Origin: a plasmid
Direction: 5' to 3' (one strand)
Sequence record: NZ_CP120968.1
Length of the DNA stretch: 48,574 nt
A program made the translations under genes and the position numbers. Numbering within the stretch: the stretch's first letter is position 1; each line of letters starts with the position of its first letter. The notes under the pieces were generated by a model. It worked only from the letters and a program-made list of their open reading frames with translations. It was not told the origin of the DNA and made no database searches. This document shows positions 1,620 to 3,303 of this stretch, piece by piece.

Positions 1620-1644
1620 TGTATAATAGATTAAGCAGGAAGTT
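1620..1644 (+). promoter_or_regulatory. displaced promoter fragment of type I TA copy 1 (extended -10 TGTATAAT plus about 17 nt of leader), separated from its toxin body by the IS110-family element
   Basis: ctgtataatagattaagcaggaagtt closely matches the intact-copy promoter at 46301-46326 (ctgtataatgaatcaagtagagaagtt); the same fragment lies left of the second IS copy at 22251-22275. Confidence 0.5.
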
Positions 1645-1808
1645 TTCTACGTAAAGTCAAGTATATTAGGACTCTAAAGTTTTAATTTATGACATATTTG
1701 GCATTATTGCTTTAATTGAGGCGTTTTTTTCTAAATTAGGAGCATCACAAAGGGCTTCAAAGAAATTACTTCTTTGAAGTTAACTTAGGCTATAATGAAC
1801 CTGATCAA

Positions 1809-3035
1809 TTAATTACGACAAAAGTCTTTTTGATTATTGTTGGCTACGTTGTAATCATACATTTGATCAGTGATAATCAAAATATATATCGTTCTAAGCA
1901 GTTTATGGATTGAAGCAATGGCAATTTTCTTGAACCCCTTCGTTTGAGAAAATTGCTTTTTTCGTTCATAGTAATCTGCTATATGACATGGACTAGTCTT
2001 AGCCGCTAGATCGATTTGTCCAATTGCACGATAAAGAATCTTCCGCGCAACGGCATTGCCGTGCTTAGAAATCCTTAAACTAGAATCTTTTTCCCCTGAT
2101 TGATATCTACCTGGATCAATACCAACAAAAGCATTTATCTTGTTTGGATTACTGAATCTTCTAATGTCGCCTAATTCGGCTAGAATTCGGACATCAGTTA
2201 TTTCAGCGATACCAGGAATGCTCATTAAGATTTCTAGATCGCGATTAGGCAAAGTCTTAGCTAATTTAATCATTTCCTCTGATCTCCGCTCGCGATCAGC
2301 TGTAAGCCGTAATAATCTATTGGCGTAATAAACCACTTCATCACGCTCCGGGTCGTCTTGATCAACTGCTGGATAAGCTAAATCCGCGAGATGCTTAAGT
2401 TTAATAGCTAGTTTTTGAGCACGGTTAATACCATAACCTTTAAAATCTTTAATTTGCTTAGCGATGGTTGATACTTCAAGATTTCTAACATCTTGGCAGT
2501 GCGGAAAGAGCTCAACTAAATACCAGTAATTAACACCTCTAGAGTTATTGAAAATGGTTTCTAATTCTGGAAAAGTTAACTGTAAATATTTATGAAGTCG
2601 ATTCTTGGAAGAAATAATATCGTGAGTTAATTCCTCATAAGCCCGACTTAAAGACTGCAATTGATGATAAACATCAGGCTCTTTTCGATTAGGTTGATGC
2701 TGATTTTGATCTTGAGCTAGTGCCAAATGGTAAGCATCATTACGATCGGTTTTATTGCGACGTAAGCCCTGATTAATTTCTTTCTTAGCCTTTAAAGGAT
2801 TAAGAAGAACATAATCATAATCGTATTCATCTAAAAATCTAGTAATTCTGCGTGAATAAACTCCAGTTGCTTCTAAGATGATTTGTGGATGTTCGGCGTA
2901 TTCTTTTAGATCTATCAACAGAGTTTTAAAGCCGATAGTATCGTTAGTGATCTTATATTCTCGTGTGGCGCCACTCTGAAGTACACAAACACTGGAATCA
3001 CGACTACTTACATCTATGCCAAAGACAATGCTCAT
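1809..3035 (-). CDS. IS110-family DEDD transposase/recombinase (408 aa)
   Basis: N-terminal RuvC-like IVFGIDVSSRDSSVCVL, C-terminal Tnp domain GIDPGRYQSGEKDSSLRISKHGNAVARKILYRA with conserved Ser; about 98 percent identical to the copy at 22441-23667. Confidence 0.9.
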   Translation of the reverse strand: MSIVFGIDVSSRDSSVCVLQSGATREYKITNDTIGFKTLLIDLKEYAEHPQIILEATGVYSRRITRFLDEYDYDYVLLNPLKAKKEINQGLRRNKTDRNDAYHLALAQDQNQHQPNRKEPDVYHQLQSLSRAYEELTHDIISSKNRLHKYLQLTFPELETIFNNSRGVNYWYLVELFPHCQDVRNLEVSTIAKQIKDFKGYGINRAQKLAIKLKHLADLAYPAVDQDDPERDEVVYYANRLLRLTADRERRSEEMIKLAKTLPNRDLEILMSIPGIAEITDVRILAELGDIRRFSNPNKINAFVGIDPGRYQSGEKDSSLRISKHGNAVARKILYRAIGQIDLAAKTSPCHIADYYERKKQFSQTKGFKKIAIASIHKLLRTIYILIITDQMYDYNVANNNQKDFCRN

Positions 3036-3303
3036 TTTTAAACCCTCCTAAATAGCTGTTAGTGGTTGGAACGTATTTACTAAGGTAATTATTTCTAATT
3101 TTCTAAACTGGACATCAAGTGTCGACATTCTTCGAAGAGAATACTAATTACTAAGTAAAACTGCCTGTTTTAAGGACGACGTCAAGCGTCTAAACTTCTT
3201 ACGGCATATAGTTTCACCACTATTTAAAGTTTAGAACAAAACTAAAATAGTGAATCAACTATCCCGTCGGATAATCGATTCACTATAAAGCTTAGAATGT
3301 TTT
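3036..3303 (-). ncRNA. candidate IS110 bridge/seek RNA in the non-coding end upstream of the recombinase gene
   Basis: 268-bp ORF-free region 5' of the recombinase, as in IS110-group elements; internal inverted repeats (tagtgaatc..gattcacta; gacgcttgacgtcgtc); identical in copy 2 (23668-23935). No covariance test is possible from two near-identical copies. Confidence 0.3.

Follow-up and report, generated by a model that had tools for sequence, protein, structure and literature searches.

An IS110-family element that very probably enters the leader of a type I toxin gene on Lactobacillaceae plasmids under RNA guidance

How does the same insertion sequence (IS) come to lie twice on one plasmid between the promoter and the body of a toxin gene? 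In a 48,574-nt plasmid stretch of NZ_CP120968.1 (the window, whose positions serve as coordinates throughout), two copies of an IS110-family element each interrupt a small toxin-antitoxin (TA) cassette within the leader of its toxin mRNA. An earlier note on this DNA had recognized this arrangement and asked whether the IS targets the TA sequence through a bridge RNA or the whole TA+IS unit moves together. Our analysis makes it very probable that the two copies integrated in separate events, each directed by RNA to one specific site in the toxin mRNA leader of a Hol-Tox/Lpt-like type I TA cassette. The mechanism itself is already known from the bridge RNAs and seekRNAs of IS110 and IS1111 elements; the TA target appears to be unreported, and in the literature we found no paper tying IS110 elements to type I toxins.

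Alignment of positions 1560-3640 with 22190-24270 revealed a unit of 1,995 bp, comprising TA cassette and IS, that is common to copies 1 and 2 (1619-3613 and 22250-24245). Outside this unit the surroundings do not align, as the earlier note had stated. The left TA fragment of copy 1 (1619-1646, plus strand) consists of the toxin -10 box TATAAT (1622-1627), ~10 nt of leader and a TTTT (1643-1646) common with the IS end; the IS (1647-3303 or, equivalently, 1643-3299; minus strand) measures 1,657 bp counting one TTTT. In copy 2, the left fragment (22250-22277, plus strand) carries the allele ...AAACAAGAAG and TTTT at 22274-22277, followed by an IS of 1,658 bp (22278-23935, minus strand). Two elements thus lie where the earlier note had placed them, with left limits corrected by 2 nt (1647 instead of 1645; 22278 instead of 22276). 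The left flanks are ctgtataatagattaAGcaGGaag in copy 1 and ...AAcaAGaag in copy 2, and the right flank is aagggcggtggc in both.

We used PLSDB records for counts of empty and occupied sites, and species genomes and metagenomes for relatives; L-numbers denote individual loci. TTTT flanks each IS copy on both sides, giving GAAG-TTTT-CTACG...GAATG-TTTT-AAGGG, whereas the empty site contains a single TTTT: in L001, whose TA is 99.4% identical, it reads GCAGGAAG-TTTT-AAGGGCGG, with AAGGGCGGTGGC as the longer right side. Both IS ends are fixed by the empty sites L001 and L103 together with the non-TA insertions L002 and L004, and in both copies the insertion point lies ~10 nt into the toxin mRNA leader. 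IS copy 1 lacks terminal inverted repeats; the core is common to the target and the IS ends, and no duplication is generated. Junction arithmetic in relatives, aimed at the exact crossover dinucleotide in the A/T run, leaves its position indeterminate within the homopolymer. Identical junctions recur in dozens of public plasmids, and both copies encode intact 408-aa transposases; that the two copies share their junctions is not chance.

The same sites exist with and without the IS. A query with joined flanks retrieved uninterrupted cassettes from 448 PLSDB records, with identities of up to 99.4%. One plasmid, NZ_CP151095.1, lacks the IS at the copy-2 site; its backbone is 99.9% identical to window positions 19162-22277 plus 23926-27135, and it keeps the bases of the copy-2 allele (AAACAAGAAG-TTTT-AAGGG). 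The copy-1 context occurs in 18 PLSDB records, and all 15 matches listed are single-piece and uninterrupted; L103, which represents this context and was read directly, is empty. A third context is found empty (L001) and occupied or with IS remnants (L025, L099, L101). At least seven TA contexts or alleles hold the IS or its remnants, in all of them with the junction at the same nucleotide; the 17-nt left fragments differ at 2-5 positions among contexts, while the ISs are 97-99% identical. The two copies in the window are different variants, and copy 2 therefore does not derive from copy 1 on this plasmid.

The earlier note had used the third TA copy of the window (46301-46338, ctgtataatgaatcaagtagagaagttaaggcggtggc) as its intact reference. 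The sequence gaagtt|aaggcggtggc is indeed contiguous there, but the locus is a paralogue that has diverged and has only TT at the position corresponding to the TTTT (GAGAAGTT--AAGGCGG); we therefore ruled it out as an empty site and took the true ones from PLSDB. No target match within 3 mismatches is present in this copy, which is intact because it has two T's fewer and lacks the predicted target spacing.

Within PLSDB, at least 80% of the whole IS-plus-TA unit is found in 60 records, versus 62 for at least 80% of the IS alone. Two insertions outside TA cassettes were found (2 of ~70), and both resemble the target. L002 reads AAAGCAACAAG-TTTT-[IS]-TTTT-AAGTGAG, with the look-alike ACAAG-TTTT-AAGT; L004, in the L. 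hilgardii chromosome, reads CTATAG-TTTT-[IS]-TTTT-AAGGGCTTT, and only its AAGGGC half matches the target. The 25-nt left fragment, which the earlier note had considered a possible part of the IS, is absent at both loci, and unrelated targets, which would have spoken against site specificity, are not common.

A guide for this specificity is predicted in the 5' non-coding end. The left (5') end (3036-3299, minus strand; 264 nt) is longer than the right (3') end (1647-1808, minus strand; 162 nt), and the candidate bridge RNA region lies upstream of the transposase gene. In IS orientation, the fold of the copy-1 left end is better than those of all 200 shuffled sequences (z = -3.8). It begins with a stem-loop of 18-19 bp followed by a U-run (3247-3287, minus strand), which scores as an intrinsic terminator and shows compensatory changes in relatives. 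The putative target-binding module (3154-3218, minus strand) consists of an outer stem that opens into a symmetric 12x12 internal loop and is capped by a distal hairpin (3178-3190); read from 3218 to 3154 it is GGUGAAACU...UGCC / GUAAGAAGUUUA / GACGCUUGACGUC / GUCCUUAAAACA / GGCAGUUUUACU. RNAalifold applied to 21 distinct left ends recovered the 5' hairpin and the module of stem, 12x12 loop and hairpin, with compensatory AU<->GC changes.

Both sides of the internal loop match the target. The 5' side, AAGAAGUUU (3192-3200), is the complement of the IS-sense strand across core and right flank (AAACTTCTT). The 3' side, CCUUAAAAC (3167-3175), has the sense of left flank and core (CCTTAAAA) and pairs with the other strand. 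The earlier note had proposed to test bridge-RNA loops for complementarity to gaagtt/aaggg; segments complementary to gaagtttt/ttttaagg are present in the 5' non-coding end. Jointly the guides predict the plus-strand target AAGAAGTTTTAAGG, matched at 14/14 positions by copy 2 (guides at 23824-23832 and 23799-23807) and at 13/14 by copy 1. The left ends of the two copies are identical (3036-3299 versus 23668-23931, 0/264 differences), whereas the right ends differ at 12/162 positions (92.6% identity), the TA bodies at 15/314 and the transposase genes at 27/1227 (97.8% identity, 10 aa differences). The zero divergence of the left end would reflect selection on the RNA region, and we count it in favor of the guide reading.

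Covariation across the family supports the assignment of the guides. We collected 27 loci from species genomes (60-64% aa identity) and 66 loci from a metagenome scan with a conserved left-end start. In these relatives the IS ends and stems are kept, while the loop segments differ and follow their own flanks. The mean number of matches between left guide and flank is 4.27/5 for 30 distinct pairs, versus 2.91 for shuffled pairs; for 21 distinct right pairs it is 3.38/6 versus 2.17. None of 5000 shuffles attained the observed match on either side. The earlier note's first option, site-specific, RNA-guided targeting, is strongly supported by this covariation together with the guide complementarity and the empty sites in the same contexts.

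The encoded protein fits such a reaction. The transposase gene (1809-3035 in copy 1, 22441-23667 in copy 2; minus strand) is intact in both copies and specifies a DEDD recombinase of 408 aa (Pfam PF01548, 4.8e-30; PF02371, 3.1e-23). Both proteins exceed the 140-bit cutoff of the NCBIfam model NF033542, 'IS110 family RNA-guided transposase', with 218 and 226 bits. IS621 and ISCro4 are the best PDB matches, and D8, E55, D97, D100 and S313 align with D11, E60, D102, D105 and S241 of IS621 (BLASTP, PDB sequence search). PGAP names the element only generically as 'IS110 family transposase', and the nearest named relative, the IS110-family ISLhe4 of Lactobacillus, is too distant at 49.8% aa identity to be the same IS. 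Judged by its sequence, the element is an unnamed member of the IS110 family sensu lato from Lactobacillaceae.

The interrupted cassettes are Hol-Tox/Lpt-like type I TA systems, and the toxicity and neutralization of these alleles are assumed from their likeness to Lpt. The TA body of copy 1 (3300-3613, plus strand) contains the rest of the leader (TTTTAAGGGCGGTGGC...), the toxin open reading frame (ORF; 3383-3472, MSVFQTLSLMLLFGTFLIALLSYIDKHHK, Hol_Tox) and the toxin terminator (3561-3589). On the minus strand, an intact RatA-like antitoxin RNA gene (3605->3515; whole feature 3515-3630) follows the promoter TAGCCA-17-TATAAT with an upstream TG (3630->3602); the consensus scan detected both this TG-extended promoter and the toxin terminator. 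Copy 2 has its body at 23936-24245 (plus strand), with the toxin ORF at 24015-24104 and the RatA-like RNA at 24147-24235 on the minus strand. The uninterrupted third locus (46294-46650, plus strand) comprises an rli28-like toxin mRNA (46294-46479), a toxin ORF (46413-46517) and a RatA-like antitoxin (46551-46640, minus strand).

All three toxin peptides belong to Hol_Tox (PF16935; 2.2e-13, 7.9e-14 and 4e-17 for copies 1, 2 and 3), and Rfam places RatA (RF01776) on the minus strand of every locus (50.3, 58.2 and 88.1 bits; gathering score 49) and calls the rli28-type toxin mRNA on the intact third locus. The antitoxin RNA is convergent with the toxin mRNA and overlaps its 3' end. Lpt of Lacticaseibacillus plasmids likewise consists of a 29-aa toxin encoded by RNA I and a convergent antitoxin RNA II, and toxicity of the peptide and its neutralization by the RNA were demonstrated in E. 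coli (Folli 2017, PMC5608710). The window cassettes share with Lpt the 29-aa hydrophobic toxin, the convergent RNAs overlapping at their 3' ends, the plasmid location and the wide occurrence in lactobacilli; unlike cassettes 1 and 2, no IS-interrupted copies are described in the Lpt paper (PMC5608710).

Homology among the cassettes begins at CTGTATAAT, the toxin -10 box (1622-1627 in copy 1). More generally, homology among the Hol-Tox cassettes stops abruptly at two facing -10 boxes (CTGTATAAT ... CATTATAGCATG), beyond which the surroundings are unrelated, as seen in the window at 1619/3613, 22250/24245 and 46301/46650 and also in L001, L102 and L103. A fourth Hol-Tox TA remnant lies at 37110-37400 on the minus strand (toxin ORF 37250-37336, PF16935 3.5e-07); it retains the antitoxin -10 box and has unrelated sequence in place of the 5' part that contains the toxin promoter and the IS target.

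We propose the following model. The 5' non-coding end of the IS would encode a bridge-RNA-like transcript whose symmetric internal loop holds two guides: AAGAAGUUU would pair with one DNA strand on the promoter side and CCUUAAAAC with the other strand on the toxin side. The predicted target AAGAAGTTTTAAGG would occupy positions ~+5 to +18 of the toxin mRNA, and both guides would overlap the common A/T run (TTTT on the window plus strand). At this run the DEDD/Ser recombinase may exchange strands of the target with those of the joined IS ends (...GTAG-AAAA-CATTC...), the circle junction being predicted as ...CTTTACGTAG-AAAA-CATTCTAAGC... The TA leader would then serve as a plasmid-borne landing pad: AAGAAGTTTTAAGG is present on hundreds of Lactobacillaceae plasmids, mostly mobilizable or conjugative (354 + 105 of 492 records). 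The terminator-like hairpin at the IS edge probably shields the element from outside transcription.

The IS ends themselves may be read by the candidate donor-binding module (3099-3131, minus strand), which is composed of AGAAUGU (3125-3131), a distal hairpin (3111-3124) and UUUAGAAAA (3099-3107). Over 7 nt each, AGAAUGU is complementary to the start of the left end, ACATTCT, and UUUAGAAAA matches the right end, ..TAGAAAA, in sense orientation. RNAalifold also paired the left-end start (UUCUAAGCU) with the 3' side of the donor loop, which we took as donor complementarity or an artefact; this pairing was set aside because the predicted transcript starts downstream of UUCUAAGCU. In the circle junction, TTGACT of the right end (1655-1660) and TAAGCT of the left end (3289-3294) would be separated by 17 bp, as counted from the sequence. 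Together they make a candidate junction promoter that would form only in the excised circle, in line with the rule for IS621, where the junction promoter is split between the IS ends (PMC11208160).

IS621, a bridge-RNA-guided IS110 element (Durrant 2024, PMC11208160; Hiraizumi 2024, PMC11208158), resembles the window element in its DEDD and Ser recombinase, the long non-coding end upstream of the gene, the module of stem, guide, hairpin, guide and stem, guides that each pair with one half of the target, on opposite strands, and extend into a core also present in the IS ends, -35 and -10 boxes (candidates in the window element) split between right and left ends, and insertion without true target duplication. 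The transposases, however, share 27% aa identity and differ in length (408 versus 326 aa), the core is an A/T run (AAAA) versus CT, the target is a plasmid TA leader versus a repetitive extragenic palindromic (REP) element, and the 5' stem-loop is terminator-like only in the window element. An E. coli copy of IS621 carries a 5' guide (AUCGGGCCU) in the sense of the left-end flank and a 3' guide, UGCGUAG, antisense to the right-end flank, in agreement with the published left and right target guides (LTG 50-58, RTG 77-80; Hiraizumi 2024, PMC11208158). A separate observation concerns L031 (positions 1672-1790; E. coli NZ_CP023349.1), in which one IS621 has apparently inserted into the LTG-coding segment of another; the tandem partial copy ends ...GCCGTATCGGGCCT|TGTATTATCC, and the guide-coding DNA would act as a target mimic.

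IS1111 elements show the guide order of the window element. In all tested members the top-strand-reading guide of the seekRNA is 5' of the bottom-strand-reading guide, the reverse of ISEc21, in which the top-strand match is 3' of the bottom-strand match (Siddiquee 2024, PMC11187229). The non-coding region of IS1111 types, in contrast, is downstream of the transposase gene, and their subterminal repeats span 7-17 bp, compared with a weak CTA(A/C)G (CTAAG/CTACG near the ends, by eye) in the window element. IS4321/IS5075 and the IS1111-attC group also home to mobile-element sequences, namely Tn21 inverted repeats and integron attC sites. ISEc21 has an upstream non-coding region, a linear, non-hairpin target inside another selfish element and retargeting in relatives, as does the window element, but differs in guide order and in its protein-coding target, a conserved codon block of IS3-family transposase genes, versus an RNA leader (PMC11187229). 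Combining an upstream non-coding region of the IS110 type with an IS1111-type guide order, the window element may represent a variant layout. With both loops swapped, the reaction would be geometrically that of IS621 with the DNA flipped.

The relatives described above (L009-L017, L032-L097; 60-64% aa identity) share IS ends and donor-loop sequences. Most of them sit in a T-tract immediately 3' of the hairpin of an intrinsic terminator, the arm of which is matched by their loop guides; the TA leader therefore looks like a natural retargeting.

What does the insertion do to the cassette? The toxin -10 box (1622-1627) is displaced by 1,657 bp from the toxin body, close to the ~1.66 kb of the earlier note, and, again as noted there, the consensus scan found no outward promoter-like site in the IS end adjoining the toxin. 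Transcripts from the toxin promoter would also run into a terminator-like hairpin with a T-run (1920-1957, plus strand), antisense to the 3' end of the transposase gene. With the toxin ORF cut off from its only recognizable promoter and the antitoxin gene intact, the cassettes are probably disarmed: they would express no toxin but continue to produce the antitoxin RNA, and the insertion would therefore be harmless to the host. The antitoxin promoter is intact and faces the recombinase gene, as previously described. However, an 18-bp hairpin with a U-run at the IS edge (3286->3247) and an apparent antitoxin terminator, read by eye and not called by the scan, lie between them; because two terminator-like structures intervene, the antitoxin promoter is unlikely to drive the recombinase.

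Several observations weigh against RNA-guided integration as we describe it. The bridge RNA with its 5' end is predicted, as is the circle junction, and neither IS end matched a bridge-RNA family in Rfam, at gathering thresholds or at E<=10, where chance snoRNA and miRNA matches appeared. The donor segments are invariant across the family and thus beyond the covariation test, and RNAalifold gave no clean second loop. The 5' hairpin with its U-run might also end the element's own transcript. Although the guides have the same partners as in IS621, they follow one another in the opposite order in the target loop and apparently also in the donor loop, and the IS621 structural model would transfer only if a flipped geometry is assumed. 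A site with 1 mismatch to the target (AAGCAGTTTTAAGG, 10455-10468, minus strand) is unoccupied in the same window. Silencing of the toxin, finally, is deduced from the consensus scan only, and read-through from within the IS may occur. As to its surroundings, the AAGCAGTTTTAAGG site is intergenic; the ORF downstream of it (9959-10240, minus strand) appears RelB/DinJ-like by eye at its N-terminus, and a 2-mismatch site is located at 10163-10176.

Could TA and IS instead form one composite unit that spread whole after a single ancestral insertion, the IS not targeting the TA at all? The repeat common to copies 1 and 2 spans exactly TA and IS, many PLSDB matches hold the same occupied unit, and the TA borders are razor-sharp in unrelated contexts with or without the IS, so the cassette itself moves somehow. 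Such an account is contradicted by the empty and occupied versions of three contexts, one on a near-identical backbone, and by copy 2, which retains the allele bases of its own empty site up to the TTTT. It also fails to explain nearly identical ISs in at least seven TA alleles with left fragments 2-5 of 17 nt apart, the IS without any TA at two look-alike sites, and the covariation of guide and target across the family. Movement of the whole unit, the second option of the earlier note, is not needed, although plasmid recombination surely spreads occupied cassettes too. As the sole explanation the composite unit is largely refuted, and we consider it very unlikely.

We regard as even less probable that insertion is not guided, either because random toxin-inactivating insertions survive or because the recombinase protein alone reads the site. 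Disruption of the toxin is harmless and could be favored, the A/T run in the target might reflect a preference of the protein, and the internal breakpoints of the deletion derivatives described below share only T-runs. Selection, however, would permit insertion into promoter, leader or ORF, whereas the junction is at the same nucleotide in every TA context; the non-TA insertions share the motif, and relatives with identical IS ends and different loops sit at sites matching their own loops. We give hardly any credence to the idea that the segments form a cis-regulatory leader of the transposase mRNA and that the target match is target-derived sequence captured at the IS end. The segments do lie in the 5' untranslated region of the transposase, and a promoter-like site (3125->3098) is found inside the candidate donor loop. 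But the guides do not adjoin the flank, lying 100-135 nt within the element; in relatives they have changed together with the flanks, between stems that stay constant; and the layout of stem, guide, hairpin, guide and stem mirrors the experimentally defined RNAs of IS621 and ISEc21 (PMC11208158, PMC11187229). RNA-guided integration thus remains our preferred reading.

Cassettes that retain only the part of the IS proximal to its right end are also present in PLSDB, with remnants of 41 nt (18 records), 284 nt (L100, L101), 296 nt (L099) and 559 nt (L098). All remnants show an exact fusion of TTTTAAGGG, in the toxin body, to an internal T-run (window positions 1681-84, 1925-28, 1939-40 and 2201-03). 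The copy-2 context occurs in four states: empty, with the full IS, with the 559-nt remnant and with the 41-nt scar. In L003 the toxin ORF bears an additional 17-nt deletion. Two deletion derivatives that arose independently on other plasmids have their internal breakpoints (1925-28 and 1939-40) inside the hairpin at 1920-1957. We looked for similarity of the internal breakpoints to the right-end and right-target halves and found only the T-run in common. These structures suggest that the remnants arose from aberrant recombinase-mediated excision at core-like A/T runs, a role for the recombinase being suggested solely because one endpoint is always the exact left-end/target junction; microhomology-mediated deletion is a possible alternative origin. 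Left-end-only IS fragments (L104-L106) were considered as reciprocal products and rejected, as they are truncations by ISLpl1 or other rearrangements.

Elsewhere in the window, two inverted copies of the IS5-like ISLpl3 (26127-26902, plus strand; 28512-29287, minus strand) surround a 384-aa ORF (26987-28141) that matches a cation:proton antiporter of a related plasmid. The layout resembles a composite transposon.

In a wider interpretation, which we offer tentatively and hold to be rather unlikely in full, this IS lineage specializes in parasitizing plasmid addiction modules and has a bridge-RNA layout not described before; it converts its targets to antitoxin-only loci and leaves a record of abortive excision. 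If so, an upstream guide RNA with the IS1111-type order would imply a cargo of inverted orientation with respect to the polarity of strand exchange, and the RNA would be programmed to the leader of Lpt-like toxin mRNAs. Killer cassettes would become antitoxin-only loci that could neutralize related toxins in trans and alter plasmid stability and competition. The left-end/target junction would stay recombinogenic, making the remnants of 41, 284, 296 and 559 nt an in vivo record of half-site recombination.

For the bridge-recombinase field, the system would provide a natural case study with one guide RNA, one 14-nt target and hundreds of plasmid-borne target copies, for which public data hold empty, occupied, off-target (half-match) and aborted-excision states. 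The family may offer Gram-positive orthologues whose core is an A/T run and whose target loop is symmetric (12x12), with natural retargeting and a guide order unexpected for an upstream-encoded RNA. Of the 684 matching TA places in PLSDB, roughly 85-100 are occupied by the IS or what is left of it, an approximate count that adds several dozen remnants to the 60 whole units. Many annotated 'holin-like toxin' cassettes may therefore be disarmed, which bears on plasmid stability in food and probiotic lactobacilli, and the repeated IS/TA units would supply portable homology for plasmid rearrangement.

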